64,000 nucleotides of DNA from positions 18,282 through 82,281 of the forward strand of contig CALFZE010000130.1 of NCBI GenBank assembly GCA_937952285.1, given 5' to 3'. Both the position numbers and the translations under genes were made by a program. Below the pieces are notes generated by a model. That model had not been told where the DNA came from. It searched no databases and was given only the letters and a program-made list of their open reading frames with translations. Each line of letters opens with the position of its first letter. Position 1 is the first letter of the stretch. Shown one piece after another: positions 9,076 through 57,294 of this stretch. This stretch comes from an uncultured Bacteriovoracaceae bacterium (GTDB lineage Bacteria; Bdellovibrionota; UBA2428).

Positions 9076-9552
9076 TCAAGCGAAGAGGCCGCGCAGCCGC
9101 TCGAGCCCTTCGCGGTCGGCCTCGCCGAAATCGTCGAGGCGCTCGCTGTCGACGTCGAGGACGAAGACGACCTCGCCCGTCGGCGCGAAGAAAGGCACGA
9201 CGATCTCCGAGCGCGACGCCGAGCTGCAGGCGATGTGGCCCGGAAACTTGTCGACGTCGGGCACGACGATCGTGCGGGCCTCGCTCCACGCCGCCCCGCA
9301 CACGCCGCGGCCCCGCGCGATCCGCGAACAAGCGAGCGGCCCCTGGAAGGGACCGAGCACGAGCTCATCGCCCACGACGCGGTAAAAGCCCACCCACAGG
9401 AAAGCGAAGCTCTCTTTGAGCGCCGCCGCGACGTTCGCCATCTTCGCGACGAGATCCGGCTCGTCCGCGACGACCGCGCGGATCTGCGGCCAGAGCTCGG
9501 CGTAGGTCTCGGCGCGCGAGAGTCCCGCGCGAAGGCTCAGCGACTCGCTCAC
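9076..9552 (-). CDS. GAF-domain free methionine-(R)-sulfoxide reductase (fRMsr/MsrC-like)
   Basis: 158 aa with the fRMsr-like GAF core (VDKFPGHIACSSASRSEIVVP). The ATG overlaps the cysK stop (4-nt ATGA). Confidence 0.75.
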   Translation of the reverse strand: MSESLSLRAGLSRAETYAELWPQIRAVVADEPDLVAKMANVAAALKESFAFLWVGFYRVVGDELVLGPFQGPLACSRIARGRGVCGAAWSEARTIVVPDVDKFPGHIACSSASRSEIVVPFFAPTGEVVFVLDVDSERLDDFGEADREGLERLRGLFA

Positions 9553-10553
9553 GTCGCGCCCAGCGGAATCGTCGCGAGGATCTTGTCGTCGACGGGCTGG
9601 GCCGTGAGCGATTGCGCTTTCTGGCGCTCCGCCTCGGCGAGCAGGGTCGAAAGGTAGCGTTCCGTGTAGCTCGGCAAGATCGCGACGATCGTCTTGCCCT
9701 TCATTTCGGGGCGACGGGCGAGCTCGCGCGCGGCGAAGAGGGCCGCGCCCGTCGAGATACCGGCGGGGAGACCTTCCGTGCGGAGGACTTCCTTCGCCGT
9801 GGCGAGGGCCTGCTCGGAACTGACCGAGAGAACGCCGTCCACGACCGAGCGATCGAAGTTCTTCGGCACGAAGCCCGCGCCGATGCCTTGGATCTTATGC
9901 GGTGCGGGCTTGCCGCCCGCGAGCACGGGGGATTCCGTCGGCTCGACCGCCCAGACCTGAATCCCCGCCCGCCGCGCCTTGAAGACGCGGCCGCAGCCCG
10001 TGATCGTGCCGCCCGTGCCGACGCCCGCGACGAAGGCGTCGAAGTCGCCGCCCGTCTCGTTCCAGATCTCCTCGGCCGTCGTGCGCACGTGCACCTCGGG
10101 GTTCGAGGCGTTCTCGAACTGCGAAGGCTGGAAGGCCGATGCGTCGGCGCGCGCGATCTCGAGGGACTTGGCGATGGCCCCGCGCATGCCGAGCGGCCCC
10201 GGCGTCAGCACGAGCTCCGCGCCGAGGAGCAGCAGCAGCGTGCGCCGCTCGAGGCTCGCCGTCTCGGGCATCGTGAGCGTGAGGCGATAGCCCTTGGCCG
10301 CGCACACGAAAGCGAGCGCGATCCCCGTGTTGCCGCTCGTCGGCTCAACGACGTGGGCGCCGGGCTTGAGACGCCCCGCCCGTTCCGCGTCTTCGATCAT
10401 CGCGAGGCCGATGCGGTCCTTGACCGAACCGAGGGGGTTGAAGAACTCGGCCTTGCCGAGGATCGTCGCGCCCGTGTCGCGCCCGAAGTGCTGAAAGCGA
10501 ACGAGGGGAGTCTTGCCGATGAGACCGAGGATCGTCGGGATTTCCGTCTTCAT
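9549..10553 (-). CDS. cysK: Cysteine synthase A (O-acetylserine sulfhydrylase, PLP-dependent)
   Basis: 334 aa with the PLP lysine motif (GSVKDR), the SGNTG loop, a GxGTGGT glycine-rich loop, and a typical CysK N-terminus (GKTPLVRF). Confidence 0.9.
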   Translation of the reverse strand: MKTEIPTILGLIGKTPLVRFQHFGRDTGATILGKAEFFNPLGSVKDRIGLAMIEDAERAGRLKPGAHVVEPTSGNTGIALAFVCAAKGYRLTLTMPETASLERRTLLLLLGAELVLTPGPLGMRGAIAKSLEIARADASAFQPSQFENASNPEVHVRTTAEEIWNETGGDFDAFVAGVGTGGTITGCGRVFKARRAGIQVWAVEPTESPVLAGGKPAPHKIQGIGAGFVPKNFDRSVVDGVLSVSSEQALATAKEVLRTEGLPAGISTGAALFAARELARRPEMKGKTIVAILPSYTERYLSTLLAEAERQKAQSLTAQPVDDKILATIPLGAT

Positions 10554-10600
10554 GGCGCTAAATTAGCGCATCCCGCGACGATCGCCCGCCCCAATCCGCG

Positions 10601-12667
10601 TCAATCTTCCGTGGCCTTCCAAGTTTCGAGCGCCTTAAGGGCGTGCTCGCGGCAAAGCGCGATCTCCTGGTCCGTGATGAGTCCGTTGTGGCCCCGGATC
10701 GCGGCGAGCTTCGCCCCGTGTTTCTTGGCGATGTCGTAGATCTCGATGACCTTGCGGTGGTTGATGTTCTTCGACAGCGTGAAGGATTCGAAGCGTCCGT
10801 CGAGGGCGAGCAAGGCCGTCTCGGCCAGGCAGGCGTAGACGGCGTCGTCGGGCGTGCCGATGTCGCAGTCCAGCTTGACGTCGCCGGGCAACTCGATTTC
10901 GCCCGACTCCACGACGAGCACGTCGGGCCGCTTGACGGCGTCCTCCTCGCTCACGTCGAGGGGTCGACTGACGTCGCAGATCACGCAACCCGGTTTCACC
11001 GCCATGATGTCGAGGACCTTCTTGTCGTAGGAGCTCGTCGAAGTCACGATGAGGTCGCAGCTGCGGGCCGCGGCGTTGGGGCTCGTGACGAGCGTGACTT
11101 TGCAGCGGGGGACGAGCTCCTGGATCTCGGAACGGATTTCGAGCAGCTTGTCCGCGCGGCGCCCCACGAGCACGAGCTCCTCGAAGACGTAGGCGAGGAC
11201 CTTGGCGCAAGCGCCGCCGATCGAGCCCGTCGCGCCGATGATCATCGCCTTGCCGCGCACCTTCGACCCGAGCTTGAACGACGGCAGGAAGCCGAGCTTC
11301 GCGCAGGCGTCGCGCGCCGCCCACAGCGTGGCGGAGGCCGAGAGACTGTTGCCCGTCGTGAGCGGGATCGGGCTGCGCTTGGCCACGGTGATGCCGCCGT
11401 CGCCCACGATCTTGGTGTAGGCGCCGAGGCCGATGATGTCGGCGCCGCGCTCGGAGGCCTTCACGCAGACCTTCGTGAGCACGTCGTACATCTTCTCGGG
11501 CGCTTCCTTCATCATGACCCGCGGCGTCTGGTAGACGATGAAAAAATCACCTTCGACTTCCTGGCCCGTCGCCTCGCTCCGCACGCCCGTGATCTTGCCG
11601 TAGAAACCCGGCGGGATCTTGCCCATGGCCGTCTCGATCTCGGACCCGAAGTTCTCGGCCATCCCCTTGAACGGCTTCAGGAAGGGAATACGGAAGAGCT
11701 GGCGGTAGCTGAGCGGGTGGATGACGAAGGCAAAGCGGCGCGCCTGCGGCTTCGCGGCGCCGTCGATCGCGATCTGGGGCTTGAGCCCGAAGCGGTCCAC
11801 GAACTCGAGGATGTCGTCTTCGCGCAAGGGTTCCCGTTCGGGTTTGAGGCACTGCAGGAGCCCTTCGATGATTCCGAACGAGAAGCGTTCCTGATCGCCT
11901 TCCATCGGGAGGCGCGGGGCGAAACTCACGACGCGCTGGACGCCGGCCTCGTGCAGCCCCTTGAGCACCCCGGGCGTGACGTAGTCGACGAGCAGGGTCT
12001 TGCCCTTGAGGTGATCGAAGCGGAAGCGCTCGAGGAGCGTCATCCGCGTCACGAAGATGTCGCACTTCTCGAAGTCGCCCAGGCCGATCCCGAGCAGGCT
12101 CTTGCGGGTGTGCCGCGGACGGATGTGGCGACCCAGGGGGATGAAGCGCGCGAAGGGCGTGACCCGGCGCAGATAGCTCTCGAGGCCGGGCAAGCTACGG
12201 ATCTCGGTCTTCGCGCCGACGTGCAGGTAGGGATCCAGGAAGACCATGCGCTCGGTCTGCTCGGAGAGCATTTGGGCGAGCCCCATCTCTAGCGCGCCCG
12301 AGTAGAAGCCGATGCGCTTCTTGCGGAAGAAAGCGGGGTCCTTGCGGATGAGCTCGCGCACCGCCCAGGGCAAGTAGGCCGAACGCAGGAGATCTCCCGT
12401 CACGACGATCGAGTGCCGCACGGAATCGAGGAGCGCCTGGGACTCGGGGTGGATCATGCGGCGCGACCCGATGCGCGTGCCGTGCTGGATGCCCTGCAAG
12501 CCGATGACGTCGGCCTTGCCGTCGAACTCGGCGATGAGGCTCCGCATGACGTCGATGTCGAAGTCGCAGCCGAAGTGGCTGACGTGGATGGATTCCCCCT
12601 CGAGCTTGACGTCGGCCTCGAAGTTCGAGGCGCTCGAAGTGAAGGAGATGTTCACGAGGCGTTTCAT
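10601..12667 (-). CDS. Two-domain protein: N-terminal ~340-aa uncharacterised domain fused to a C-terminal acyl-ACP-reductase (AAR)-like NAD(P)-binding domain
   Basis: The last 688 codons of the 1130-aa track ORF; the ATG at 12667-12665 was verified. The C-terminal domain aligns block by block with cyanobacterial AAR (TTGNSLSASATLWAARDAC, IIGATGSIGGACAKVL, CVICDVSRP, ACLAETALLALDGRF). The N-terminal half has no match I recognise. Confidence 0.7.
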   Translation of the reverse strand: MKRLVNISFTSSASNFEADVKLEGESIHVSHFGCDFDIDVMRSLIAEFDGKADVIGLQGIQHGTRIGSRRMIHPESQALLDSVRHSIVVTGDLLRSAYLPWAVRELIRKDPAFFRKKRIGFYSGALEMGLAQMLSEQTERMVFLDPYLHVGAKTEIRSLPGLESYLRRVTPFARFIPLGRHIRPRHTRKSLLGIGLGDFEKCDIFVTRMTLLERFRFDHLKGKTLLVDYVTPGVLKGLHEAGVQRVVSFAPRLPMEGDQERFSFGIIEGLLQCLKPEREPLREDDILEFVDRFGLKPQIAIDGAAKPQARRFAFVIHPLSYRQLFRIPFLKPFKGMAENFGSEIETAMGKIPPGFYGKITGVRSEATGQEVEGDFFIVYQTPRVMMKEAPEKMYDVLTKVCVKASERGADIIGLGAYTKIVGDGGITVAKRSPIPLTTGNSLSASATLWAARDACAKLGFLPSFKLGSKVRGKAMIIGATGSIGGACAKVLAYVFEELVLVGRRADKLLEIRSEIQELVPRCKVTLVTSPNAAARSCDLIVTSTSSYDKKVLDIMAVKPGCVICDVSRPLDVSEEDAVKRPDVLVVESGEIELPGDVKLDCDIGTPDDAVYACLAETALLALDGRFESFTLSKNINHRKVIEIYDIAKKHGAKLAAIRGHNGLITDQEIALCREHALKALETWKATED

Positions 12668-13725
12668 GCGCCACCCCCGGCGATCGTATCGAACTCGTCG
12701 CTTCTCACGAAACGATAGAAAGCTTCGGCGTAGTCGCCGAAAAGCGGAAGGGAAAGGTCGGGATAGTCCTCGCGCAGCGAGTGGTTCGCGAACTGCGCCT
12801 CGGAGTAGAGGTAGTGCTGGAGCGAAGCGGGGATGCCCAGGCGAGGCAGGAGCGCCGGCGGCACGACGCCGCGAGGGAGCGGCACGAGACGCGTGCGGTG
12901 CCCCAGCTCCTGGAAGGAACGCTCCAAGAACTCCGCCATCGGAAAGGCGGGACCGGAAAGGTGGTAGGTCCGCCAACGCCCTTCGAAGAAGGCCGGCTGC
13001 CGGGCGATGCGGGCAAGGACCGCGGCCACGGCGTCCACCGGCACGATGTGCAGGGGCGCCCCCGGATGGAAGGGCAGAGGCGTACGGCCGAAAACGGAGA
13101 GCGCGCGCCAAAGCGGCGCGTGGCGCTTCAGGCTCCGCAGCAAGTAGTAGGGTCCGTCGATCTTGTCGGTGCGGCCCGTGGCGGCGTCGCCGACCAGGAT
13201 GCCCAACCGGCAGACGTACTTGCGGACCTCGGTCTTCCAGGCGCCGACGAGGCCTTCGACGCGGAACTTCGTCGAGGCGTAGGGATTCGGGAAACCCTGC
13301 CCCACGTTGAACATGTTCTCGTGGAAGATCCCCCGGAAGTCCCCCGCCACGGCGATCGTGCTCGTCGACACGAAAGTCTCGAGCGAGGTGAGGCGATCGC
13401 AAAGGCCCAAGAGATTCTGCGTGCCCACGACGTTGTGGAGGTAGTTCTGCGAAGCGCCGATGCGCAGGTCGTAGCTGGCCGCCATGTGCAGGACGCCGCG
13501 AACCTCGGAGGCGAGCTCGTCGATGTGGTCCCGCTCGGTCAGCACGCCGAAGTCGCGCAGGTCGCCCGCGAGCAGCCGCACGTCCTTGCGATCGCCGTAG
13601 AGACGGCGCGCCTGCGCCATCGAGGCCGGGCGAACGACGAGGTAAAGGAGCCCCGGGTAACCTTCGAGGGATTCGAGGACGCGACGGCCCAGGAAGCCGC
13701 TCGCGCCGGTGATCAAGAGACTCAT
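12664..13725 (-). CDS. NAD-dependent reductase of the thioester-reductase / fatty-acyl-reductase (NAD_binding_4, extended SDR) type
   Basis: Starts MSLLITGASGFLGRRVLE (TGxxGFLG) and carries the YASTK catalytic dyad. A GGGGAAG RBS lies upstream. Its stop overlaps the downstream ATG as ATGA. Confidence 0.8.
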   Translation of the reverse strand: MSLLITGASGFLGRRVLESLEGYPGLLYLVVRPASMAQARRLYGDRKDVRLLAGDLRDFGVLTERDHIDELASEVRGVLHMAASYDLRIGASQNYLHNVVGTQNLLGLCDRLTSLETFVSTSTIAVAGDFRGIFHENMFNVGQGFPNPYASTKFRVEGLVGAWKTEVRKYVCRLGILVGDAATGRTDKIDGPYYLLRSLKRHAPLWRALSVFGRTPLPFHPGAPLHIVPVDAVAAVLARIARQPAFFEGRWRTYHLSGPAFPMAEFLERSFQELGHRTRLVPLPRGVVPPALLPRLGIPASLQHYLYSEAQFANHSLREDYPDLSLPLFGDYAEAFYRFVRSDEFDTIAGGGA

Positions 13726-14651
13726 AGTGCTTCCCCCAAAGGACTGAAGAGGCGGAGGCCTTTCGGCATGATCTCGATGTCGAAGCTCGAAGCTTCGCAA
13801 AGGAACTCGCCGTCGCCGAAGAACGGCAAGGTCTGGCCGTCGAGCACGTCGATGCGCACCCGGCGCGCTTCCGCCGTGAAGAACTCGGGATCGTTGCGCG
13901 GGTCGCGTCCGCGGCGGATGTCGAGGAGCCCCTTGAGGAATCCCAGGCGGTGGCGATGCCCGAAGCCTGCCACGTTGAAGGTTCCGTCGTCATTGCGCGT
14001 GCTCGGCGCGATCGCGAAGTTTCCGCCCAGCACGGGCTGGTTGTTGATCATGAGGATGGGCGTGCGGATCTCCGAGACGACGCCGTCGACGTCGATCCGG
14101 AACGGAATGCCCCGGCCGCCCGGGCCGAGCAGCTTAAGCACGACGCCCGCGGAATAGATGTTCGGGCCGGTCAGCTTCATGAAACGCTTGAAAAGGGGGG
14201 CCTGCGCGCGCCACTCGTTCACCTGGAGCGCGACCGAGGCGCCGAGCCCCAACCCGCCGTTCGTCGCCATGTAACGGCCGTTGATGCGGATAAGGTCGAT
14301 GCAACGCTCGTTGGAACGGCGCACGGCCTCGACGGCCCGCTCGATGCGACGGTCCAAGCCGATCTCGCGGGCGAGGTCGTTGGCCGTGCCGGCCGGCACG
14401 AGCAGCAAGGCAACGTTGGATCCCGCGAGGTCTTGGATGAGCGTGTTCGCCGTCCCGTCGCCACCGACCGCGACGATGGCGTCCACGCGGTCGCTCACGG
14501 CGCGCAGCAGCTCCTCGTGCAGGCGATCGAGCCCGTCCGGCGAAACGAATTCGAGCTCGCTGCGGAAGAGCTTACGCTTGAGCCCTTCCACGAGTTCGAC
14601 GCTTTCGCCCGACGAGGCGCGCGGATTCAGGAAAATTCTAATCTTCTGCAT
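13722..14651 (-). CDS. Lipid kinase of the diacylglycerol-kinase catalytic-domain family (YegS/DgkB-like)
   Basis: 309 aa with the AIVAVGGDGTANTL motif and a YegS-type C-terminal domain. Its stop overlaps the SDR ATG (ATGA). Confidence 0.8.
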   Translation of the reverse strand: MQKIRIFLNPRASSGESVELVEGLKRKLFRSELEFVSPDGLDRLHEELLRAVSDRVDAIVAVGGDGTANTLIQDLAGSNVALLLVPAGTANDLAREIGLDRRIERAVEAVRRSNERCIDLIRINGRYMATNGGLGLGASVALQVNEWRAQAPLFKRFMKLTGPNIYSAGVVLKLLGPGGRGIPFRIDVDGVVSEIRTPILMINNQPVLGGNFAIAPSTRNDDGTFNVAGFGHRHRLGFLKGLLDIRRGRDPRNDPEFFTAEARRVRIDVLDGQTLPFFGDGEFLCEASSFDIEIMPKGLRLFSPLGEAL

Positions 14652-14755
14652 AGGGAGCCCTCTCCCTCTTCGGAGAAAACGCTCCCTCGCACAAGCCCGG
14701 CGGGGCCGGCGTCAAACTCTCAACGCCGCCGAAGCGCCGCGGCGCACCGGAACAC

Positions 14756-15150
14756 CTACTTCGGGGCGCGCAAACGCAGGCTCAGATTGATCGCGAGCTT
14801 CCGCAGGATCTGGATGTGGGCCTCGGGGTTGCGTCCCACGAAGTCGTTCATACGGGCGTGGGGGATCAGGAGGACCTTGGCATCATTGCCCGCCACGGTC
14901 GTCGCGCTGGCCGGCTGTCCGTCGAGCCACGACATCTCGCCCAGCATGTCGCCCGATTGGAGGCGAAAACCCGAGGGCTGAACGACGACCTCGCCCTCCA
15001 TCACGATGCAGATGGCGTCGTTGCGACGCCCTGCCTCGGTGAGGTGCGTTCCCGTCGGGAGCTTGGCGATCGAGGAAAGCGAAAGCAGCTCCGTGCTCTC
15101 GTCCGGCGTCAGTTCGTTCAGGAGCCAAGTCTGCAGCAGCAACTGTCTCA
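14756..15150 (-). CDS. Stand-alone cyclic-nucleotide-binding (cNMP) domain protein
   Basis: The C-terminal 131 codons of the track ORF form a CAP-effector-like beta-roll (IVMEGEVVV...GDMLGEMSWLDGQPASATTVAGNDAKVLLI). A GTG at 15150 is preceded by GGAAGGGGGA. The upstream part of the track ORF looks like antisense junk. Confidence 0.5.
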
Positions 15151-15244
15151 CGGTGTCATATCCCCCTTCCCAGGATAATCGAATCGTCCCGACTGCGATA
15201 CGGGTCGCTGGCGTCCGGAGCGGAAGGGACGCATACTTAGAGCC

Positions 15245-16051
15245 ATGAAAACGCACCGCCTGCCCGTTTTGGCCCTCTTCGCGCTCACCCTGAACGGCCC
15301 GGCCTTGGCGCAGAAGGCGCCGAGCGCCGACGAGATCATGCAGAAGAGCGAAAGCGCGCGCCGCATTCCGCAGCTCAAGGCGGAGGGTCTCCTCGCCACG
15401 AGCGGCGACGGTGCCCCTTCCGACAAGACCTTCCTGTTCTCCCGCAAGCTGACCTCGGACGGCACGCGTTTCCGCACGCTCACCCGTTTCAAGACGCCGG
15501 CCACGGTCCGCGACCAGGCCATCCTCTTCCTCGAACGCGACAGCGACTCGAGCGACATCTTCATGTACCTGCCCAACTTCAAGAAGACCCGCCGGGTCGA
15601 GTCCCACGCCCAGAGCGGAAGCTTCATGGGCACGGCCTTCAGCTATTCCGACATCGCGAATCCCCACGCCGAGGACTACACGCACAAGCTGCTCAAGTCC
15701 GAGAAGTGCCCCGGCGGCGCGAACAACTGCTTCGTCGTCGAGTCGACCCCCCGCACCGCGGGCGTGAAGGAACGCACCGGCTACTCGAAGTCCGTCCAGT
15801 GGATCGATTCCGTGAGCTACCTTCCCGTCAAGGGCGAGTTCTACGACGCCAAGACCCAGAAGCTCCGCAAGCAGATGGTGTCGAGCGACATCCAAGCCGT
15901 CGGCGCGAAGAAGGCCCACTACCTCGCCCACCGCTCCGAGATCACGGATCTCACGAACGGCCGCAAGAGCCGCCTCGTGTTCTCGAAAGTCAACGTCGAC
16001 GAGAATCTCCGCGATAACCTCTTCACCCAGGCCGCCCTCGAGTCGCCCTGA
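15245..16051 (+). CDS. Periplasmic LolA-like protein (outer-membrane lipoprotein-sorting-protein family)
   Basis: Signal peptide followed by a 268-aa domain with the layout of LolA-like proteins. It is paralogous to the ORF at 40888-41670. Confidence 0.65.
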   Translation: MKTHRLPVLALFALTLNGPALAQKAPSADEIMQKSESARRIPQLKAEGLLATSGDGAPSDKTFLFSRKLTSDGTRFRTLTRFKTPATVRDQAILFLERDSDSSDIFMYLPNFKKTRRVESHAQSGSFMGTAFSYSDIANPHAEDYTHKLLKSEKCPGGANNCFVVESTPRTAGVKERTGYSKSVQWIDSVSYLPVKGEFYDAKTQKLRKQMVSSDIQAVGAKKAHYLAHRSEITDLTNGRKSRLVFSKVNVDENLRDNLFTQAALESP

Positions 16052-16071
16052 GCGGATCCGCGAAGCGTCCG

Positions 16072-17358
16072 ATGCCGAAGCACGCCCCGTCTCGACGCCT
16101 CGCCCTCCTCGGCCTGGCGTGCGGCCTGGGCGTCGGCGCGCACGCGGCCGAGGTCGCGGGGCGCCTGCTCAGCGCGACCCACTTCGCCGTCGACCCCGGC
16201 GCGCGACGGCCGCTTCTGCAGAACACGCAGCTGGGCTTTCTGCGCGTCCGCGAGAGTTTCGACGAAGGCCCGCGCTTCGAGGGGAGCGTGCGGCTCGTCG
16301 CGGAACCCCGCGGGCTCGACGCCACCGGCAAGACCTTCGAAGCGGACTTTCACGAATTCTACCTCAACCTCCGGCGCGGCGACTGGGATGTTTCGCTCGG
16401 ACGGCGCATCCGCAGCTGGGGCATCGCGGACGGCGTGAACCCGACGCGTTTCTTCGGCGCGAAGGACCACACGCTTCTCCTGTCGAACGAAACCGACAAG
16501 GAGCTCCCGCTCACCCAGCTCATCGTGAACTGGACGCCCGACGGCGGCGCTTGGACTTGGGGCCTCGTTTTCCTGCCGACCTTCGTGCCCGACAAATTCT
16601 ACGTCCCGCCGGAGAGCCTGCCGACGGGCGTCGCCTTCAACGACACCGCTCAGTTTCGCGGCGAGGGATGGGGCGGCGGCGGCGGGCTGCGCCTCGCGTA
16701 CGTCGGCGACGGTTTCGACTTCGCGCTCGTCGGCTTCGCCGGCTTCGACCCGCGTCCCGAGTACGAAGTCCGCGTCGTGAAGGTCCTGCCCGAGCTCGTG
16801 ACGCTTTACCGCAAGCAGGTCGGCGCCGGTCTCGAGGCCTCGACCTCGACGGGCCCCTGGATCTTCCGCCTGGAGGGATCCTTCCGCCACTTCGTTTCGG
16901 AGTGGGATCGCGATCCCTACCTCCTACAACGGACCGAAGGCGTCGTGGGAGTCGAACGCTCGCTCGGCGACAGCTGGCGGATCAACGCGCAGGCGATCGG
17001 CCACCACTCCTCGACCTCGATCGCTTCGGGGAGCTTTCCCCTGACGGCCGAGACCGCCGGGCTCTACGCGGTCGTCCGACTGAACGAGCGGGTCTACCGT
17101 TCGCGAAGGTCGGCGGAAGCCGGCGCGACCTTCCGTCTCGCCTACGATTCCGAAACGAATCCCTTCACGGCGGAAGTTTTCGGCGTGACCTACTTCGCCG
17201 ACCTGGACTGGCTCGGACGAGGCGCTTTGGGATGGAAAGCGCGCGACGGACTCAAGCTAAGTCTCGGCGTCGACTACTACTCGGGGGACGACGAGACGCT
17301 CTTCGGCAGCCTCCACGACCTCTCGGCCGCTTGGTTCGAAGCCGCTTTCGACTTTTAG
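16072..17358 (+). CDS. Outer-membrane beta-barrel protein (partner of the LolA-like protein; DUF1302-like)
   Basis: Signal peptide, amphipathic beta-strands and a C-terminal Phe. The motif GRRIRSWGIADGVNPTRFF is shared with its paralog at 41673-42944. Confidence 0.6.
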   Translation: MPKHAPSRRLALLGLACGLGVGAHAAEVAGRLLSATHFAVDPGARRPLLQNTQLGFLRVRESFDEGPRFEGSVRLVAEPRGLDATGKTFEADFHEFYLNLRRGDWDVSLGRRIRSWGIADGVNPTRFFGAKDHTLLLSNETDKELPLTQLIVNWTPDGGAWTWGLVFLPTFVPDKFYVPPESLPTGVAFNDTAQFRGEGWGGGGGLRLAYVGDGFDFALVGFAGFDPRPEYEVRVVKVLPELVTLYRKQVGAGLEASTSTGPWIFRLEGSFRHFVSEWDRDPYLLQRTEGVVGVERSLGDSWRINAQAIGHHSSTSIASGSFPLTAETAGLYAVVRLNERVYRSRRSAEAGATFRLAYDSETNPFTAEVFGVTYFADLDWLGRGALGWKARDGLKLSLGVDYYSGDDETLFGSLHDLSAAWFEAAFDF

Positions 17359-17374: not shown

Positions 17375-18232
17375 ATGATCCAAATCCACGAGTTCGTCGG
17401 CGAAGAGAGCGGAACGCACCTGCTTATCTTGGGCGGGATCCACGGCAACGAAGTCTGCGGGCCCCGCGCGCTGAGCAAACTCGTCGACGAACTTCGGGGC
17501 GGAAAGCGCACGCTCGCGAAGGGACGCCTGACCATCGTTCCCGTCTGCAACCCCCGGGCCCACGCCGCCAACGTGCGCTTCATCGAAGAGAACCTGAACC
17601 GCGTGTTCGAGCCGAGCGACGCGCCGAAGTCCTACGAACGCCGTCTCGCCCAAAGCCTCGCGCCGCTCGTGGCCCGCTGCGACGCGCTGCTCGACCTGCA
17701 CAGCATGCAATCCAAGGGCGAAGCGTTTTCCGTGCTGAACCAGGATCGGCCGGGCTCGGCGTCGCTTTGCCGCGCGCTGGGCACGCGCTGGATGCTTTCG
17801 GGATGGCCCGAGGTCTACCGCGACCACGCCGACAAGGACAGCTGCTGCACGCAGAGTCTGGCCGACCGCCACGACAAAGCGAGCGCGCTCATCGAATGCG
17901 GACAGCACGGCAGCGTCGAAGCCGATCGCGTCGCCGAAATCGCGATCGAGCGCGCCCTCGCGCATTTCGGCCTGGGCGGGCTTGCGGCGGGTCACGTCGC
18001 GAACCTCGAGCCCCGGCGCGTTCATTTGCGCTCCGTGCATTTCCGCGAATCCGACGGCGACCGGCTCCTGAAGGACTTCGAGAACTTCGAAAGCCTGCGC
18101 CAAGGCGATCCCATCGTAAAGCGCGCCGATGGCCGCGTGGAGCACGCCCCCGAAGACGGGGTCATCGTTTTTCCGAGCCCCCATTCGGCGATCGGCACGG
18201 AGCTCTATTACCTTGGCAAGCTCCAAGGATAG
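17375..18232 (+). CDS. Succinylglutamate desuccinylase / aspartoacylase family (M14-like Zn hydrolase)
   Basis: 285 aa with the LILGGIHGNEVCG zinc-ligand motif typical of the AstE/AspA family. Confidence 0.75.
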   Translation: MIQIHEFVGEESGTHLLILGGIHGNEVCGPRALSKLVDELRGGKRTLAKGRLTIVPVCNPRAHAANVRFIEENLNRVFEPSDAPKSYERRLAQSLAPLVARCDALLDLHSMQSKGEAFSVLNQDRPGSASLCRALGTRWMLSGWPEVYRDHADKDSCCTQSLADRHDKASALIECGQHGSVEADRVAEIAIERALAHFGLGGLAAGHVANLEPRRVHLRSVHFRESDGDRLLKDFENFESLRQGDPIVKRADGRVEHAPEDGVIVFPSPHSAIGTELYYLGKLQG

Positions 18233-18327: not shown

Positions 18328-19386
18328 ATGGAACGTTTTCAACGTCGCCTCCGCCGCTCCCCTTCAATTCTCCTCTTGAGCTTCGTCGCCGGCCTCTCGG
18401 CCTGCGGCAAAGCGACCACGGGCGCCGAGCCCGAGGGCGTCGTCGATAACACGACCCCCCTCGGCACGACGCCCCTTCCCTCGAGTGCCCTCTCCCTCGA
18501 CGTCATCGCCGCGAGCGGGGCGGAATGTCCGGCGGGCGGTTCGGTCCTCGTGCGTTTCGTCGACGCGAACGGCAACGCGACGCTCGACGCGAACGAGAAC
18601 GTCGTCTCGCGTCTGCCGATCTGCAACGGCGCGCGCGGCACGGACGGCGGCGAGGGCATCGCCTCGGGGCTGCTCTTCGAGAACGCGACGAGCGCGAGCT
18701 GCGCTTACGGCGGCTCGAAGCTGACCGCCTTCGCGGACCGCAACGGCAACGGCCAACGGGAGATCGGCGAGGAAATCCGCTCCGAGACGACGATCTGCAA
18801 CGGCCGCGACGGCGCGGACGGTCGCGACGGCGAAGCGGCGAGCTTGAGCGTGGCGCCCGCGAGCGCGGCCCAGTGCCCGGGCGGCGGCGCCGTGTACACG
18901 AGCGTCTCCGCGTCGAGCTCGGCGCAGACGACCGTGGTTTGCAACGGCCAAGACGGTCGCGACGGCCGAAACGGACAGGATGGATCAAACGGGCAAGACG
19001 GAACGAACGGCCGCGACGGATCGAATGGCCGTGACGGCGTGGATGGCCGCGACGCGACCTACGCCATGGGCGCCGTCGGCTCGATCGTGAAGGGACGCGA
19101 CTACTCCGCCTGCCACCACGACTACCTCTACCTGCCGAATCGCGAGGAAGGCGCGCGCGGGTGGCTGCTCTTCCGTCACCAGGCCAACGGCGCGAACGAC
19201 CAGGGCGTCGGTCCGACCGGCTTCCAGGTGTGGAACGTCGACATCGGCGACTTCGCCCTCGTGTCCGAGGTCGGCGGCGTGACCTACTGCCGACTGCGCT
19301 GGCACGCCGAGAAACGGCTCCTCGAGTACGAAGTCGTCGACCGGAGCAACGGGCTAGCGGGCGAGACGGGCCAGATCTCCTTCTGA
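18328..19386 (+). CDS. Lipoprotein with three Cys-bounded modules and collagen-like Gly-X-Y repeats
   Basis: Lipobox LSAC. Three modules run C(P/A)xGG...CNG, each followed by a G-x-x run (CNGQDGRDGRNGQDGSNGQDGTNGRDGSNGRDGVDGRD). Confidence 0.7.
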   Translation: MERFQRRLRRSPSILLLSFVAGLSACGKATTGAEPEGVVDNTTPLGTTPLPSSALSLDVIAASGAECPAGGSVLVRFVDANGNATLDANENVVSRLPICNGARGTDGGEGIASGLLFENATSASCAYGGSKLTAFADRNGNGQREIGEEIRSETTICNGRDGADGRDGEAASLSVAPASAAQCPGGGAVYTSVSASSSAQTTVVCNGQDGRDGRNGQDGSNGQDGTNGRDGSNGRDGVDGRDATYAMGAVGSIVKGRDYSACHHDYLYLPNREEGARGWLLFRHQANGANDQGVGPTGFQVWNVDIGDFALVSEVGGVTYCRLRWHAEKRLLEYEVVDRSNGLAGETGQISF

Positions 19387-19467: not shown

Positions 19468-21306
19468 CTACTGGAGGTCGTCGACGACCGTCGCGGAAGG
19501 TTGCAGCAGTTCGGCCGGGTAGACTTCGGGTTCCGCCGCGGCGGCGACCTTACGGCCGGCCGAGCTCGTCTTGACGGCGCCCGTATTCACGCCGAGCATC
19601 TCGTCGCCGACGCTCAGCCCGACCGGGATCGCCCGGCCCGTGTAGAGACCGTAGGCGTCGAGGTAGGCCAGGTACTCGTTGATGAGCGTCTGATGCTTGG
19701 AGCTCGCGACGACGGGCGCGTCGATGCGCACCGACTTCTGGAACATCCCGTAGGCCGGGCTTCCCCACTTCTTGATCTCTTCGTCAGCCGCCGCGAGGCC
19801 CGCCGGCGTTTGCGGCGCCATCGCGCGGAAGGTCACCTCGTCGCCCGGCGCGCGGTAGACGAAGCGGCCTTGGCAGCCCGACCAGCCACACTCGAGGGGG
19901 TTGCCCTTGAAGGGGCTATATCCCGAGGGGCGTTTCTCTTCGGCCGCTTCGAGGGTGCGGATGCACTCGGCGTAGCGCGCATCGCGGTTGTCGTTCGGGC
20001 ACAGGAAGTCGAGCACGCGAATCTTGTAAGCGCGAAAGTCGTTGTTGGGCACCCACTCGGCGCGTCCGCCCCCGGTGGCGACGGGCTTCCAAAGCGGCTC
20101 CGGCGAGGTCCAGCTCATGGCCAAGTGGCCCATGCCCCGGTAGCAACGGGTCATGTCGGGATCCGTCTGCACCTTCACGTTCACGATGTAAGTCTCGACG
20201 CGACGGCGCTCCCAGGGGAAGCGAGGCTCGATGACGCGACGCTGTTCGCGCGGCTCCATCTTGAAACCCGGCGCGAAGTCGCAGAAGGCTTTGAAGAAGC
20301 CCAAGCCGCCGCCCCGGTACTGGGGTTTGCGCTTGGTCGGGTCCGGGTTCAGGTCGAGCGGGTCCTTCTCGGGCGAGGGACCGTAGTTCCCCCAAACCCC
20401 GGAGTACGGAAAGTTATTCGGCTTCATGCGCAAGCAGCCGCGCGAGCAGTCGTAGGTGTCGCCCTGCGAGAAAGCCGTCGTGGACGGCGCCCAGGGATAA
20501 GAGGCGAAGGGCTTGGCTTGGCCCTCGGCGAGCGGCGGGTTCGGATAGCCGTAGCCGGTCATGTAGAAGCGGCCGTCGGCGTGCAGTCGCTCGAAGTCGG
20601 TGAAGCTGAGCGAGCCGAGGACGGGGATGCCCCACGCCCGCGACAGCAGCGGCGCCAAGGTGAAGCCGGAGTTGCAGCCCCAGAGGGCGGCGAAGGCGTT
20701 CGGGCTGAAACGCGGAGCGAGCGCCGCGATGCCGGGATGGAGGGCGCGCACGTCCGGATTGCCCGTGGCGTACATGTTCGCGATCGGCTGCGCGAGCGGA
20801 AAGCGGAAGTTCCAGTCCTTCGTTCCCATCGCCGCGCCCGAGGGCCAGCTCGCGTGCGAAAAGACCTCGAAGCCTTCGATCGAGCCGAACTGCGAAGCGA
20901 TCGCGGCCATCTCGGCGGATCCGAGGGTTCCACGGGGCTGCGACACGACGTGCAGACGCGCGCCCTTGATCCACGCGGTCTCGCGGTCGCCGGCCTTGAC
21001 GCCCTTCGCGATGAGCGGCTTGCGCAGGACTTCGTCGATGTTCTCGATGGGCTCCATCGGCACGTAGGCCAGGACCTGACGCTCGGGGAACTGCGACGAG
21101 AGCACGCTCAGGCGCGTCGCGACGGCGTCGAAGAGCGCCTTGCCCAATTCGTTGGGCGCGCCCATGAAAAGAAGGTGCGCGGGGAGCCGCGAGTTCACCG
21201 GGCGATCCGGCGTGGCCGAAAGCACGTAGTAATCCGCCCGCGACGCCGACGTGACCGAGACCAAGGCGCAGCCGAGCAACGCGCGCGTGAAGAATTTTTT
21301 CTGCAT
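19468..21306 (-). CDS. Secreted hypothetical protein (612 aa)
   Basis: Long ORF with a signal peptide (MQKKFFTRALLGCALVSVTSASRA) and globular composition. No family recognised. Confidence 0.65.
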   Translation of the reverse strand: MQKKFFTRALLGCALVSVTSASRADYYVLSATPDRPVNSRLPAHLLFMGAPNELGKALFDAVATRLSVLSSQFPERQVLAYVPMEPIENIDEVLRKPLIAKGVKAGDRETAWIKGARLHVVSQPRGTLGSAEMAAIASQFGSIEGFEVFSHASWPSGAAMGTKDWNFRFPLAQPIANMYATGNPDVRALHPGIAALAPRFSPNAFAALWGCNSGFTLAPLLSRAWGIPVLGSLSFTDFERLHADGRFYMTGYGYPNPPLAEGQAKPFASYPWAPSTTAFSQGDTYDCSRGCLRMKPNNFPYSGVWGNYGPSPEKDPLDLNPDPTKRKPQYRGGGLGFFKAFCDFAPGFKMEPREQRRVIEPRFPWERRRVETYIVNVKVQTDPDMTRCYRGMGHLAMSWTSPEPLWKPVATGGGRAEWVPNNDFRAYKIRVLDFLCPNDNRDARYAECIRTLEAAEEKRPSGYSPFKGNPLECGWSGCQGRFVYRAPGDEVTFRAMAPQTPAGLAAADEEIKKWGSPAYGMFQKSVRIDAPVVASSKHQTLINEYLAYLDAYGLYTGRAIPVGLSVGDEMLGVNTGAVKTSSAGRKVAAAAEPEVYPAELLQPSATVVDDLQ

Positions 21307-36557: not shown

Positions 36558-36677
36558 AATGGGGCATCGCGCCACGGCGAATTCCGTTTAGGCGCCTTTC
36601 GACTGAGCCCGGAAAAAGTGAGCGTCGCGCTTCGCGCGCCGGGTGCGCCCCCACCTTTTGGGCTATCCTCGGGCGCC

Positions 36678-37382
36678 ATGAGCGAAGCCTCGATCGAACT
36701 CACGAACGTCGTCAAAGAATACCAGCTCGGCAAGGTCACCGTGCCGGCCCTCAAGCAAGTGAGCTTGCGCATCGAGAACGGCGAATTCACCGTCATCGCC
36801 GGCCCGTCGGGCAGCGGCAAGACGACGCTCCTGAACCTCATCGGCTGCGTGGACCTCGCCACGCGCGGGAACGTCGTGGTGAGCGGCAAGGACACGGCCC
36901 AGCTCACGGAGCGCGAGCTCACGGACCTGCGCTTGCACCGCATCGGTTTTATCTTTCAATCCTTCAACTTGATCTCCGTGCTGAACGTCTACGACAACGT
37001 CGAGTTCCCCCTCCTCTTGATGAAGGACCTCGACGCGAAGGAACGCCGGGAGCGGGTCCTCCACTTTATCCATAAAGTCGGCCTGCAAGACCACATGAAG
37101 CATCGTCCGAACGAGCTTTCGGGCGGCCAGCGCCAGCGCGTCGCGATCGCGCGCGCGCTCGTCACGAAACCGCGCATCGTCCTCGCCGACGAGCCCACCG
37201 CGAACCTCGATTCGCAGACGGGCCAGAGCATCCTCGACCTCATGAAGCACATCAACGAGAGCGAAAAGACGACCTTCCTCTTTTCGACGCACGACGATCG
37301 CGTCATCCGCCAGGCCCGCCGCATCGTCAAGCTGCGCGACGGCGCGATCGAGTCGCTCGGTCTCGAAGGCCGCGCGAACTAG
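36678..37382 (+). CDS. ABC transporter ATP-binding protein (LolD/MacB-type)
   Basis: Walker A GPSGSGKTTLLN, signature LSGGQRQRVAIARAL, Walker B IVLADEPT. The start is taken at MSEASIELTNV; the track ORF begins 60 nt upstream. Confidence 0.9.
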   Translation: MSEASIELTNVVKEYQLGKVTVPALKQVSLRIENGEFTVIAGPSGSGKTTLLNLIGCVDLATRGNVVVSGKDTAQLTERELTDLRLHRIGFIFQSFNLISVLNVYDNVEFPLLLMKDLDAKERRERVLHFIHKVGLQDHMKHRPNELSGGQRQRVAIARALVTKPRIVLADEPTANLDSQTGQSILDLMKHINESEKTTFLFSTHDDRVIRQARRIVKLRDGAIESLGLEGRAN

Positions 37383-37393
37383 GGGAGCCTGGG

Positions 37394-39487
37394 ATGCTAC
37401 TTTGGAAGCTCGCGTTCCGTAACCTCTTCGTCCACCGCCTCAAAACGGCGGTGACGGGGCTTATCATCGTCTTCGGCACGACGCTCGCGATCGTGGGCAA
37501 CGCCGTGGTCGACGCCATCTCGGGCGGCATGCAGAAGAGCCTCACGAACAGCATCACGGGCGATTTGCAGATCTACGCGGGCGACGCGCCCGAGAAGATC
37601 GCCGTGCTCGGCGGCTTCGACGGCAACATGCCCGACATCGGCCACCTGAACGACTTCCGCAAGGTGAAAGACGCGCTCACCGCGAAAGTGCCGAACGTGC
37701 GCGACGTCATCCCGATGGGGATCAGCCAGGCCTTCTTCAACCCCGGCAACATCCTCGACCTCAAGCTCGCCGAGTTGCGCAAGACTTTCTACGAGAACCC
37801 GAGGCCGGTGGAGCGCCTCCAGACGCAGAAAGAGCACCTCGTCGAGATCGTACGCGACATCGAGCGCAGCCGCCGCGAGAACGCCGAGCTCCTGGGGAGC
37901 ATCTACGGCGGCGAGGAGCTCTTCAAGACGGCGCCGGCCGACATCGAGCGAGCCCTTTCGCCCGCATTCTGGGCGAACTTCGACGCCCACTTCGAGGAAC
38001 GCGTCGAGTTCCTGGCGAACCGCATGGCGCCCCTCATCTTCGACGATAACCAGCTCTTCCTGAGCTACATCGGCACCGTGCCCGAGCTCTTTCGCGACTC
38101 CTTCTCGCAGTTCGAGATCGCGAAGGGCGAAATGATCCCCGAGGGGGCGCGCGGATTCCTGTTCAGCGATTACATCTACGAGAACCAGGTCAAACACCGC
38201 GTGGCCCGGCGCCTCGACCAGATCAAAAAGCAGATCGATAAGGAAAAGCGCACGATCAAGGACACGAAGGAGCTCCAGGACCGCGTCGCGGCGAACGTCG
38301 CGCAGGCCGCCGAGGTCTACAACCAACTCGACCCGGCGCGGGGCCGCGAGCTCGCCCCCAAGCTCCGCGACTTCCTCAAGTCCGAAAAAACGACGATCGC
38401 GGAACTCGTGCAGGAGTTCCTCGCCACGACCGACGAGAACTTCGCGTCCCACTACGAGTTCTTCTACGCCGAGATCGCGCCCCACATCCTTCTCTACAAG
38501 GTCAAAGTCGGCGATGTCTTCCCGCTTACGGCCTTCACGAAGTCGGGCTATTCGTCTTCGACGAACGTCAAGGTTTACGGCACTTATCGTTTTAAGAGCT
38601 TCGAGAGTTCCCCGCTCGCTTCGAGCTTCAACATCCTCGACATGGTCTCCTTCCGCACGCTCTTTGGTTTCATGACCGAAGCGCGACGCCAAGAAACGGC
38701 CGACATCGACCGCGAAATGGGTGCCGCCGATGTGGGCCGCGACGACATCGAATCCCTCTTCGGGGGCGGAGCCACCGTCGTCCAGGAAGCCCGCGGCGAA
38801 GCAAAAGCGCTCCGGAGCCTGGGCCAAGAAAAGTTCGGACGCATCGATGCCGTCCGACGCGACGCCGACACCAAGTATTCCCGCGAAGAGATGGAAAATG
38901 GCGTCTTCATGAACGCCGCCGTCTTGCTCAAGGATTCCGCCCGGCTCGACTCGACGCTCGACGAGATCCGCAAGGTCTCGACCGACGACGGTCTCGGGAT
39001 CCAGGCCACGGGTTGGCGCGAGGCCGCCGGCGGCGTGGGACAGCTCACCGTGATCGTGCGTGGGGTGCTCTACCTCTTCGTGATCGTCATCTTCGGCGTG
39101 GCGACCTTCATCATCATGAACTCGATGCTCATGGCGACGCTCGAGCGTGCCCGCGAGATCGGCACGATGCGCGCGATCGGGGCCCAGCGTTCCTTCCTCA
39201 TGGGGCTCTTCCTGCGCGAGACCTTCGTGCTGAGCTTCCTCTTCGGACTCGTTGGGACCCTGATCGGCGTGGGCATCGTGCTCGCCGTCGGCGCGCAGGG
39301 CATCCCCTCGATGGGCGACGTGACGACCTTCTTCTTCTCGGGCGACCGGCTTTACCTGAGCGTGAACCCGCTCCACATCTTGATCGTCTTCGGCTGCATG
39401 ACCCTCGTCGCCGTCGTTTCGACCCAATACCCGGCCTGGCGCGCGATGCGAATCTCGCCGCTCGAAGCCATGCAGCAGAGCGAGTGA
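37394..39487 (+). CDS. ABC transporter permease, FtsX/MacB-like, with a ~500-aa periplasmic domain
   Basis: 697 aa: TM1, a large extracytoplasmic domain, then three C-terminal TM helices with the FtsX-like signature (ATLERAREIGTMRAIGAQR). Confidence 0.85.
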   Translation: MLLWKLAFRNLFVHRLKTAVTGLIIVFGTTLAIVGNAVVDAISGGMQKSLTNSITGDLQIYAGDAPEKIAVLGGFDGNMPDIGHLNDFRKVKDALTAKVPNVRDVIPMGISQAFFNPGNILDLKLAELRKTFYENPRPVERLQTQKEHLVEIVRDIERSRRENAELLGSIYGGEELFKTAPADIERALSPAFWANFDAHFEERVEFLANRMAPLIFDDNQLFLSYIGTVPELFRDSFSQFEIAKGEMIPEGARGFLFSDYIYENQVKHRVARRLDQIKKQIDKEKRTIKDTKELQDRVAANVAQAAEVYNQLDPARGRELAPKLRDFLKSEKTTIAELVQEFLATTDENFASHYEFFYAEIAPHILLYKVKVGDVFPLTAFTKSGYSSSTNVKVYGTYRFKSFESSPLASSFNILDMVSFRTLFGFMTEARRQETADIDREMGAADVGRDDIESLFGGGATVVQEARGEAKALRSLGQEKFGRIDAVRRDADTKYSREEMENGVFMNAAVLLKDSARLDSTLDEIRKVSTDDGLGIQATGWREAAGGVGQLTVIVRGVLYLFVIVIFGVATFIIMNSMLMATLERAREIGTMRAIGAQRSFLMGLFLRETFVLSFLFGLVGTLIGVGIVLAVGAQGIPSMGDVTTFFFSGDRLYLSVNPLHILIVFGCMTLVAVVSTQYPAWRAMRISPLEAMQQSE

Positions 39488-39497
39488 GGAATCCGAA

Positions 39498-40856: not shown

Positions 40857-40887
40857 ACGCGGGCGCGACCCGCAGGAAGGACCGAAC

Positions 40888-41670
40888 ATGAAACGCCCGC
40901 TCAAGATCCTCGGACTCGCGGCCCTCGCCGCGTTCTCCGCTCCCGTGGCCCGCGCCGCCCTCTCCGAGAAGGACGCGCTCGAGCTCGTGAAGCTCGTCGA
41001 CGAGAAGCAACGCAACTCGGGCGATTACGCCTCGCTTTGCTTCGTCAAGGAAACCGAACGCAAGAAGGAGCCCAAGGTCTTCCAGGCCATGGTCTATCGC
41101 CGCGACGCCGACGACAAGTTCATGATCCTCTTCACCAAGCCCAAAGAGGAGGCCGGCAAGGGTTACCTCAAGATCGACAAGAACCTGTGGATGTACGACC
41201 CCTCCACGGGCAAGTGGGAGCGCAAGACGGAGCGCGAGCGCATCGGCGGCACGAACTCGCGGCGCTCGGATTTCGACGAATCGCGTCTCGTCGAGGAGTA
41301 CGACATCAAGGTCGACGGCGAAGGCACGCTCGGCAACTTTAAGGTGCACAAACTCAAGCTCACCGCGAAGAAGGGCAAAGACGTCGCCTACCCCGTGCTG
41401 GGCCTCTGGATCGACCAGGCCGACAAGAACGTGCTCAAGCGCGAGGAGTTCTCGCTCTCGGGCAAGCTCATGCGCACGACCTTCTACCCGAAGTGGACCA
41501 AGAAGTTCAGCGAGTCCAAGAAGGCCGACGTCTGGATCCCCGAAGAGATGCGTATTTTCGACGAGCTCGAGAAGGGCAACTCGACGGTCGTCACGATCAA
41601 GGAAACCGACCTCAAGCCCCTCGATGCCAACATCTTCACCAAAGCCTGGATCGAATCCAAGAGTAAATAG
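40888..41670 (+). CDS. Periplasmic LolA-like protein (outer-membrane lipoprotein-sorting-protein family), paralog of 15245-16051
   Basis: The start MKRPLKILGLAALAAFSAPVARA is preceded by GGAAGGACCGAAC. The 260-aa protein has the LolA-like architecture; the 5' part of the track ORF is spurious. Confidence 0.7.
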   Translation: MKRPLKILGLAALAAFSAPVARAALSEKDALELVKLVDEKQRNSGDYASLCFVKETERKKEPKVFQAMVYRRDADDKFMILFTKPKEEAGKGYLKIDKNLWMYDPSTGKWERKTERERIGGTNSRRSDFDESRLVEEYDIKVDGEGTLGNFKVHKLKLTAKKGKDVAYPVLGLWIDQADKNVLKREEFSLSGKLMRTTFYPKWTKKFSESKKADVWIPEEMRIFDELEKGNSTVVTIKETDLKPLDANIFTKAWIESKSK

Positions 41671-41672
41671 GG

Positions 41673-52929: not shown

Positions 52930-52932
52930 TCC

Positions 52933-53358: not shown

Positions 53359-53368
53359 TTTCTCTCCT

Positions 53369-56494: not shown

Positions 56495-56521
56495 TCTATT
56501 CCTCGCCGATTTCGGAGGCCG

Positions 56522-57292: not shown

Positions 57293-57294
57293 GA

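Follow-up and report, generated by a model that had tools for sequence, protein, structure and literature searches.

The 64,000-nucleotide stretch of DNA from an uncultured Bacteriovoracaceae bacterium analyzed here (contig CALFZE010000130.1; "the window" below) contains two pairs of adjacent genes, each of which encodes a predicted periplasmic protein of the LolA fold (the carrier) followed by an outer-membrane beta-barrel (the barrel). Comparison of sequence families indicates that the relationship between the two pairs is real and very old, and that each is a cognate, co-evolving pair belonging to one of two deep lineages within a single module family. We hold with moderate confidence that the pairs constitute the periplasm-to-outer-membrane half of a trans-envelope route for hydrophobic or lipid-anchored cargo, in which pair 2 would belong to a whole route running from an ATP-binding cassette (ABC) transporter through carrier to barrel, and pair 1 would be an orphan of the other lineage. 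The four genes are:

15245 to 16051, plus strand: carrier 1, predicted periplasmic LolA-fold protein of 268 aa, PF17131 (LolA_like / TP_0789-like), type-1 lineage
16072 to 17358, plus strand: barrel 1, 428-aa outer-membrane beta-barrel, a short, divergent member of the DUF1302 superfamily
40888 to 41670, plus strand: carrier 2, predicted periplasmic LolA-fold protein of 260 aa, PF17131, type-2 lineage
41673 to 42944, plus strand: barrel 2, outer-membrane beta-barrel of 423 aa, branching distantly within the barrel-1 superfamily and without a Pfam model

An original prediction, made from the letters of the window, had placed the four open reading frames (ORFs) exactly here, and they prove to be real and tightly spaced, with gaps of 20 nt between carrier 1 and barrel 1 (16051 to 16072) and 2 nt between carrier 2 and barrel 2 (41670 to 41673). 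The window is 65% GC, and a GC content at third codon positions (GC3) of 0.8-0.9 marks true genes; the four ORFs have coding-type values of 0.83-0.92, as opposed to ~0.65 in antisense shadow ORFs. The start codon of carrier 2 (ATG) is preceded by a GGAAGGA ribosome-binding site. The antisense ORFs at 15919-16890 and 41982-42905 were dismissed as genes on the basis of their GC3 of ~0.65. Together with 10601-13993 and 37397-39784, they make up a set of minus-strand shadow ORFs (GC3 ~0.63-0.76) that are typical artefacts of 65%-GC DNA.

Relationship of the two pairs

Pairwise BLASTP comparison of the two pairs returned only chance-level scores (E 0.14 for the carriers, E 0.17 for the barrels), and family profiles were therefore needed. 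With three sequences, hhalign already joined the barrel families at 95.8% and E 7e-9; with 81 and 31 sequences the alignment reached 98.2% and E 4e-14 over 323 columns at 13% identity. A hidden Markov model (HMM) of the barrel-1 family from which the window protein had been left out recovered barrel 2 of the window with 48 bits (E 7e-8, scaled to 1.84e9 sequences). The carrier families aligned at 92.6% (E 4.5e-7) over 222 columns, with 18% identity. The pairs are thus related beyond chance at the level of profiles, though not by direct BLASTP.

All-against-all BLAST bit scores divided carriers and barrels into the same two groups. Carrier 1 scored 181-202 bits against the type-1 carriers that lie beside barrel-1 relatives and 18 bits against carrier 2, which in turn scored 286-384 bits against type-2 carriers and shares 57-73% identity with the carriers of type-2 loci. 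The window proteins are therefore much closer to proteins of other phyla-level lineages than to their counterparts in the window, and the matching division of carriers and barrels argues for cognate pairs that co-evolved, as opposed to a local duplication. The original prediction of two paralogous, duplicated modules consequently stands in so far as the two-gene modules are homologous by profile. It does not stand as a statement about local duplication, given 13-18% identity, membership in two deep lineages, and the different kinds of ABC partner that each lineage has in other genomes.

The carriers

Both carriers match Pfam family PF17131 over nearly its whole length of 184 positions and far above its cutoff of 30 bits: carrier 1 with 167.9 bits (E 2.4e-49, profile positions 4-183) and carrier 2 with 136.3 bits (E 1.2e-39, profile positions 2-183). 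At E<=0.1, the Pfam matches of these proteins were confined to LolA_like, DUF1329, and Kelch_1, the last below threshold, and NCBIfam offered no model for any of the four pair proteins. Relatives with solved structures support a LolA-superfamily fold at sequence level. In the Protein Data Bank (PDB), carrier 1 matched 3bk5 at 1e-22 and 9tp6 (LolA3 of P. gingivalis) at 1e-18, while carrier 2 matched 3buu (NE2245, LolA superfamily) at 7e-11; 4z48 is a further solved structure of the superfamily matched by sequence in the carrier searches. By eye, both N-termini resemble signal peptides (...LNGPALA|QK in carrier 1 and ...SAPVARA|AL in carrier 2), with no lipobox Cys, and no Cys near the cleavage site, in either. 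Type-1 carriers also share a conserved Cys pair (C155/C162 in carrier 1).

The link to DUF1329 (PF07044) concerns carrier 1, which matched this family with 31.7 bits (cutoff 23.1), its best stretch covering only profile positions 265-346 of 368 and lying in the C-terminal part of the carrier, and Pfam gave no DUF1329 match for carrier 2. The overlap indicates a related domain and not a full-length member of the family.

The barrels

No Pfam or NCBIfam model matched either barrel. DUF1302 (PF06980, gathering cutoff 23.2 bits) failed to match the window barrels even at E<=10, and sequence searches of solved structures, with single sequences or profiles, found no relative of either one. The barrel-1 family is nevertheless large: an exhaustive HMMER search, which was needed since a word-indexed search picked up few relatives, recovered 3518 representatives of 50% identity clusters at E<=1e-3 and 263 at E<=1e-30. 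Barrel 2 had 34 homologues, none with a Pfam domain. The tie to DUF1302 emerges from the relatives. At E<=0.01, 48 of 81 barrel-1 relatives matched DUF1302 (best 2.9e-12), always around the motif described below (profile positions 143-219), and the relatives P0040 (26.0 bits) and P0041 (24.2 bits) exceeded the family cutoff, over the motif region only. One of 31 barrel-2 relatives matched at the same threshold. Together with the DUF1329 score of carrier 1, these matches mean that the comparison with DUF1329/DUF1302 pairs, which had been offered as an analogy, reflects real homology.

AlphaFold2 modeled barrel 1 as an all-beta barrel (predicted local distance difference test, pLDDT, 91.6; predicted template-modeling score, pTM, 0.88) and barrel 2 as a barrel with a low-confidence N-terminal extension of ~45 aa (pLDDT 81.4, pTM 0.75); the models have ~18-20 strands. 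Foldseek searches of the PDB returned generic matches to both, among them the 18-strand C. jejuni MOMP, OccD/OccK/OccAB, and AlgE, and 16-strand porins. The best for barrel 1 were 18-strand porins and AlgE, with Occ/OprD channels among the nearest folds, and the best for barrel 2 were MOMP and OmpF-type porins, all with template-modeling (TM) scores of ~0.5. The same structural neighbours have been reported for DUF1302 proper, likewise without a solved structure (PMC13499233). From the models we are confident in predicting that both proteins form large (~18-strand) outer-membrane beta-barrels like the Occ/AlgE channels. Both start with signal-peptide-like sequences lacking a lipobox (by eye; AHA|AE in barrel 1) and end in Phe, the usual C-terminal residue of outer-membrane barrels. 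A reading of barrel 1 as a lipoprotein was rejected, as its 'LACG' is unfit as a lipobox and is not conserved.

The most conserved element of the barrels is a G-x-Q-x-I-x-W-G...N-P-T-D motif, which starts at the end of strand 5 in both models. The two motifs that the original prediction had quoted are instances of it:

16399 to 16455, plus strand: GRRIRSWGIADGVNPTRFF, barrel-1 residues 110-128, at the start of a long non-strand segment after strand 5
42138 to 42197, plus strand: GRQKIKWGAGKFWNPTDVMN, barrel-2 residues 156-175, paired with the barrel-1 motif by hhalign

Near-invariant columns among 81 barrel-1 sequences are G110, W116, G117, D120, P124, and T125; residues G156, Q158, W162, G163, F167, W168, N169, P170, T171, and D172 are invariant among 31 barrel-2 sequences. 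The non-strand segment of barrel 1 (residues 113-146) is mostly coil, yet is modeled with a pLDDT of 95-98. Given the usual periplasmic N-terminus, the segment would correspond to extracellular loop 3. In classical porins, loop 3 folds into the lumen, and the motif probably lies in such an inward-folded loop.

The ABC engine of pair 2

Pair 2 closes a co-oriented block of five genes (36618-42944) with gaps of 11, 10, 31, and 2 nt. The three genes upstream of carrier 2 are:

36618 to 37382, plus strand: ABC ATPase, LolD/MacB/DevA-like (Pfam ABC_tran, E 5e-33)
37394 to 39487, plus strand: permease 1, 697 aa, FtsX-type (E 2e-20, residues 561-689), with a periplasmic domain of ~500 aa
39498 to 40856, plus strand: permease 2, 452 aa (Pfam FtsX E 4e-15 and MacB_PCD E 3e-6)

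By their domains, these genes encode a predicted type VII ABC transporter of the FtsX/MacB/LolCDE-like kind. The best NCBIfam model of the ATPase was LolD, with 231 bits and thus under its cutoff of 307.75, and the permeases scored 70.4 and 59.7 bits against the LolC/E model (cutoff 362). The original prediction had likened both pairs to those that flank resistance-nodulation-division (RND)/MMPL lipid exporters. This part of the analogy was not borne out: the engine of pair 2 at 36618-40856 is instead the type VII ABC, and tblastn of the window found no engine in cis for pair 1. Between 36057 and 43600 there is no gene for an HlyD adaptor or a TolC-like duct. The cassette consequently lacks the membrane-fusion adaptor and duct of a MacAB-TolC-type pump, which fits a shuttle and not a tunnel.

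A 214-aa protein with one N-terminal hydrophobic helix (42956-43600, plus strand) starts 11 nt past barrel 2. It has no Pfam or NCBIfam match and is absent from the four related type-2 loci.

Related loci in other genomes

We examined 12 related loci, eight of type 1 and four of type 2. In all 12, the barrel gene adjoins a PF17131 gene and has an inner-membrane engine close by, which in 11 is an ABC of the MacB/LolCDE type. Seven independent type-1 loci (L003, L004/L009, L006, L010, L012, L013, and L014), which include metagenome-assembled genomes (MAGs) of Bdellovibrionales, Polyangiaceae, and 'Proteobacteria', present the order ABC ATPase, fused double MacB_PCD/FtsX permease of ~860 aa, PF17131 carrier, and barrel. 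The remaining one (L011, a Bacteroidota MAG) has a barrel-1 relative, an MMPL transporter, and a PF17131 carrier in a row, an arrangement that echoes operons under iron regulation described in P. gingivalis and P. intermedia, in which an MMPL transporter occurs with an 'outer membrane lipoprotein-sorting protein' (PMC10434189). All four type-2 loci reproduce the five genes of window positions 36618-42944 in unchanged order, within unrelated flanks, and their permeases measure 689-712 aa (position of permease 1) and 434-440 aa (position of permease 2).

Beyond carrier, barrel, and engine, the flanking genes of the related loci are not conserved. Regulators are occasional neighbours (a MarR/MmpR5-like helix-turn-helix gene, LysR, a two-component system, and Fur), a hint of an inducible envelope or efflux function and not of a dedicated pathway. 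In L003 and L014, genes for right-handed beta-helix (pectate-lyase-like) proteins separate the ABC genes from the carrier-barrel pair and occur immediately downstream as well, with a radical-SAM/B12 gene upstream; these neighbours could be a lineage-specific clue to cargo.

Comparison with known systems

The closest known counterparts of the window pairs are the DUF1302/DUF1329 pairs (PF06980/PF07044) of Pseudomonas, Shewanella, and Kangiella, which are accompanied by a BNR protein and by an RND exporter of COG1033. DUF1302, DUF1329, the BNR protein, and the RND protein are cofit and have been proposed to export an envelope component (bioRxiv 10.1101/072470), and AlphaFold-Multimer predicts a DUF1302-DUF1329 complex with an interface pTM (ipTM) of 0.84 (PMC13499233). 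The window pairs share with this system a LolA-fold periplasmic partner beside a large barrel, the same WG...NPTD-type motif region, and a tie between the pair and an inner-membrane transporter, the function of the known system being likewise only proposed (10.1101/072470; 10.1101/2020.07.04.188060; PMC13499233). They differ in that the barrels are shorter (423-428 aa, compared with a profile of 541 positions) and fall below the Pfam threshold, the carriers belong to PF17131 and are not full-length DUF1329 proteins, and the engine of pair 2 is a type VII ABC in place of an RND protein. As for the other components, tblastn found no MMPL homologue in the window that could be a COG1033-type partner, no BNR-repeat family appeared among the Pfam matches of the window genes scanned, and no LuxR regulator was seen here.

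The only RND protein found in the window is a heavy-metal pump of the CzcA type in its own CzcCBA-type cluster on the minus strand (51625-57358). The cluster comprises an OEP outer-membrane factor (51625-52929), then a 147-aa gene, CzcA itself (53369-56494; 820 bits on TIGR00914), and a gene of 278 aa that has no Pfam match and may be the adaptor. A functional link of the pairs to this separate heavy-metal RND system was considered and dismissed.

The pair-2 cassette resembles LolCDE-LolA-LolB in its FtsX-type ABC with large periplasmic domains, its soluble LolA-fold carrier, and its logic of extraction, shuttling, and delivery. However, permeases and ATPase lie far under the equivalog cutoffs, the carrier comes from another Pfam family, and the acceptor is an integral barrel here and a lipoprotein (LolB) there. 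Judged by these sequence comparisons, the cassette is not a canonical Lol system.

The BBJ23-BBJ29 cluster of Borrelia burgdorferi, a computationally proposed exporter of a non-polar ligand (PMC13078400), also brings together a type VII ABC resembling MacB, a periplasmic LolA-like protein, and a barrel of the outer membrane. Its barrel, however, is Omp85/BamA-TamA-like and not DUF1302-like, and the cluster is plasmid-borne and has extra chaperone-like genes. The LolA3 loci of Bacteroidota (P. gingivalis PG1175-81 / PGN0947, structure 9TP6, and the P. intermedia operons) share the PF17131 carrier, to which carrier 1 is linked by its match to 9tp6. In published operons of Bacteroidota (PMC10434189), the neighbours of this carrier are an MMPL transporter, ABC ATPases, and hypothetical genes. 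Unlike the window, the LolA3 loci have an MMPL engine and not FtsX, are regulated by TetR and induced by iron limitation, and follow the order barrel, engine, carrier. The likeness to MlaFEDB-MlaC-MlaA/OmpC is one of architecture only, an ABC, a soluble periplasmic lipid carrier, and an outer-membrane complex on a porin-like barrel. MlaC is not LolA-like, and Mla and the window pairs have no relationship in sequence or fold; to our knowledge, no MCE or MlaA homologue is present.

Proposed mechanism and alternative explanations

The periplasmic face is where type VII ABC transporters of the MacB/LolCDE class engage their substrates. The most likely function of the pairs is accordingly sought in ATP-driven extraction, periplasmic shuttling, and delivery at the barrel of a predicted hydrophobic or lipid-anchored cargo. 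In pair 2, the ATPase and the two FtsX permeases, whose periplasmic domains are large, would spend ATP on pulling cargo out of the inner membrane at its outer face and hand it to carrier 2, which would cross the periplasm and dock on barrel 2; the barrel would then insert the cargo into the outer membrane or pass it through. Pair 1 could use an engine encoded elsewhere, borrow the ABC of pair 2, or act without one, and it is plausible that the two pairs serve more than one putative cargo. The analyses above show the layout of the genes, the families to which they belong, the distant homology of carriers and of barrels, the barrel fold, the parallel grouping of carrier and barrel lineages, and a recurring association with ABC or MMPL engines in other genomes. 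We infer the direction of transport, the contacts of the carrier with barrel and permease, the topology of the loops, and the nature of the cargo.

Several observations weigh against this proposal. When the window was searched by tblastn with fused FtsX permeases, MMPL, and the matching ATPase, only pair-2 genes were recovered, and no FtsX or MMPL gene was found in the 7.8 kb read beyond the window end (L016); pair 1 thus has no engine in the window, unlike all eight type-1 relatives examined. Scans for promoters and terminators gave chance-level results only, and operon boundaries thus come from gene spacing alone. Among the related loci there was no conserved biosynthetic neighbour that would point to a cargo. 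The reverse of the profile test, the barrel-2 family profile against barrel 1 of the window, was not significant (E 0.46), because barrel 1 is a divergent member of its family. Finally, Pseudomonas mutants in DUF1302/DUF1329 have a growth defect on Tween 20 and butyl stearate (10.1101/2020.07.04.188060), a phenotype that fits uptake at least as well as export.

Uptake is unlikely overall but is a live rival to outward delivery, especially for the engine-less pair 1. Hydrophobic nutrients (such as long-chain esters, hydrocarbons, or sterol-like compounds) would enter through the barrel as their channel and the carrier would shuttle them inward across the periplasm, with pair 1 acting passively and without an engine. 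This would accord with the absence of an ATP-driven partner of pair 1 in the window and with the substrate-specific Occ/OprD channels among the nearest barrel folds. It would also accord with the fitness loss of P. putida DUF1302/DUF1329 mutants on the two substrates named above (10.1101/2020.07.04.188060), with the location of DUF1329 and DUF1302 genes in aromatic and steroid catabolic clusters (10.1101/072470), and with a Thalassolituus protein with MMPL and LolA-like domains that is induced 42-fold on C28 alkane (PMC6304351). Catabolic genes, however, are not conserved beside the cassettes, and the partner in 11 of the 12 related loci is an ABC of the MacB/LolCDE type. This class is known to us only as exporters or extractors, which counts against uptake.

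It is doubtful that the genes are ordinary Lol lipoprotein-sorting genes (LolCDE plus LolA) in which the barrel replaces LolB. The best NCBIfam models of ATPase and permeases are indeed LolD and LolC/E, the carriers have the LolA fold, and LolB is absent from many bacteria (PMC13078400, PMC13103446). Yet all of the models score far below cutoff (in rounded bits, 231 against 308 for LolD, 70 and 60 against 362 for LolC/E), one genome holds two different pairs of which one has no ABC, and the carriers belong to PF17131. LolA3 of P. gingivalis, a member of that family, binds LolB very weakly (PMC13103446), and deletion of lolA3 in F. johnsoniae leaves both motility by gliding and secretion by the type IX system unaffected (PMC11885536).

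A further possibility, which we also consider rather improbable, is that pair 1 is truly engine-less. It would either plug into the pair-2 ABC, giving one pump with two non-cognate carrier/barrel exits for two cargos, or deliver a specialised lipid to the outer membrane on behalf of the putative lipid-modifying operon at 9076-15151 (a DAG-kinase-like lipid kinase and two acyl reductase-like enzymes, under the control of a cyclic-nucleotide-binding protein).

Ordinary diffusion porins that stand beside LolA-like genes by chance would explain why the best Foldseek matches are general and specific porins (TM ~0.5), but this is highly improbable: the adjacency to PF17131 recurs in all 12 relatives across distant taxa, the lineages of carrier and barrel match, and neither window barrel is matched by any Pfam model of porins. 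Recent duplication of a pair within the genome, with one copy then losing its ABC genes, to which the same gene order, the same two families, and a common strand within 26 kb might point, is already refuted by identities of only 13% (barrels) and 18% (carriers), by the closer affinity of each window protein to other phyla-level lineages, and by permease architectures that differ elsewhere (fused, ~860 aa, in type 1 and split, ~700 + 440 aa, in type 2).

Significance

Apart from the Lol, Lpt, and Mla models, the passage of lipids, lipoproteins, and other hydrophobic compounds through the periplasm is still an unsolved problem. The kind of system described here, a LolA-fold partner with a DUF1302-type barrel and an inner-membrane transporter, already appears in databases and in a handful of fitness and bioinformatic papers. 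Our literature searches found no published description of the ABC-coupled carrier-barrel cassette; such forms are abundant in metagenomes, and neither barrel type has a Pfam model. The tie of both barrel types to DUF1302, made by comparing profiles, unites the Pseudomonas DUF1302/DUF1329 fitness data, the LolA3/MMPL operons of Bacteroidota, and the Borrelia MacB/LolA-like cluster as parts of a single modular system whose engines are interchangeable. To this the window adds two members and one orphan pair. Their individual importance is moderate and the locus itself is unsurprising, but the result offers a useful way into an envelope transport module that is widespread and uncharacterised.

Neighbouring genes

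A lipid-type gene run on the minus strand (9076-15151) diverges from carrier 1 across a 93-bp gap and may make a modified lipid. An AstE/AspA-family gene follows barrel 1:

9076 to 9552, minus strand: GAF protein
9549 to 10553, minus strand: pyridoxal-phosphate (PLP)-dependent enzyme
10601 to 12640, minus strand: 679-aa protein, C-terminal half like the N-terminal region of PigE and acyl-acyl carrier protein (acyl-ACP) reductase
12664 to 13725, minus strand: NAD_binding_4 reductase
13722 to 14651, minus strand: diacylglycerol (DAG)-kinase/YegS-like lipid kinase
14756 to 15151, minus strand: cyclic-nucleotide (cNMP)-binding protein
17375 to 18232, plus strand: AstE/AspA-family gene (succinylglutamate desuccinylase / aspartoacylase), 16 nt past the barrel-1 stop, with a GAGGG ribosome-binding site

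Given its GAGGG site and 16-nt spacing, the AstE/AspA gene may be co-transcribed with pair 1. Neither this gene nor the run at 9076-15151 recurs beside barrel-1 relatives, and they are therefore not counted as parts of the module.

Further along, positions 18328-19386 (plus strand) encode a secreted protein that carries a DUF7151 domain together with G-x-y repeats of the collagen-like kind (GRDGRNGQDGSNGQDG...). Two other proteins, of 612 aa (19468-21306, minus strand) and 421 aa (44937-46202, plus strand), look secreted on visual inspection of their N-termini and belong to no Pfam family. In the public MAG GCA_002343545.1, pair 1 is found on contig DDRA01000013.1 and pair 2 on DDRA01000170.1. 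If the 83-kb MAG contig were laid collinearly along the window, it would run into the 9.6-kb contig; this assembly and the window are therefore not fully collinear. Just past coordinate 64000 (L016) lie IS3-type transposase genes (HTH_Tnp_1 and rve), a cation-efflux gene, a DsbA-like gene, lspA (signal peptidase II), and dsbD.

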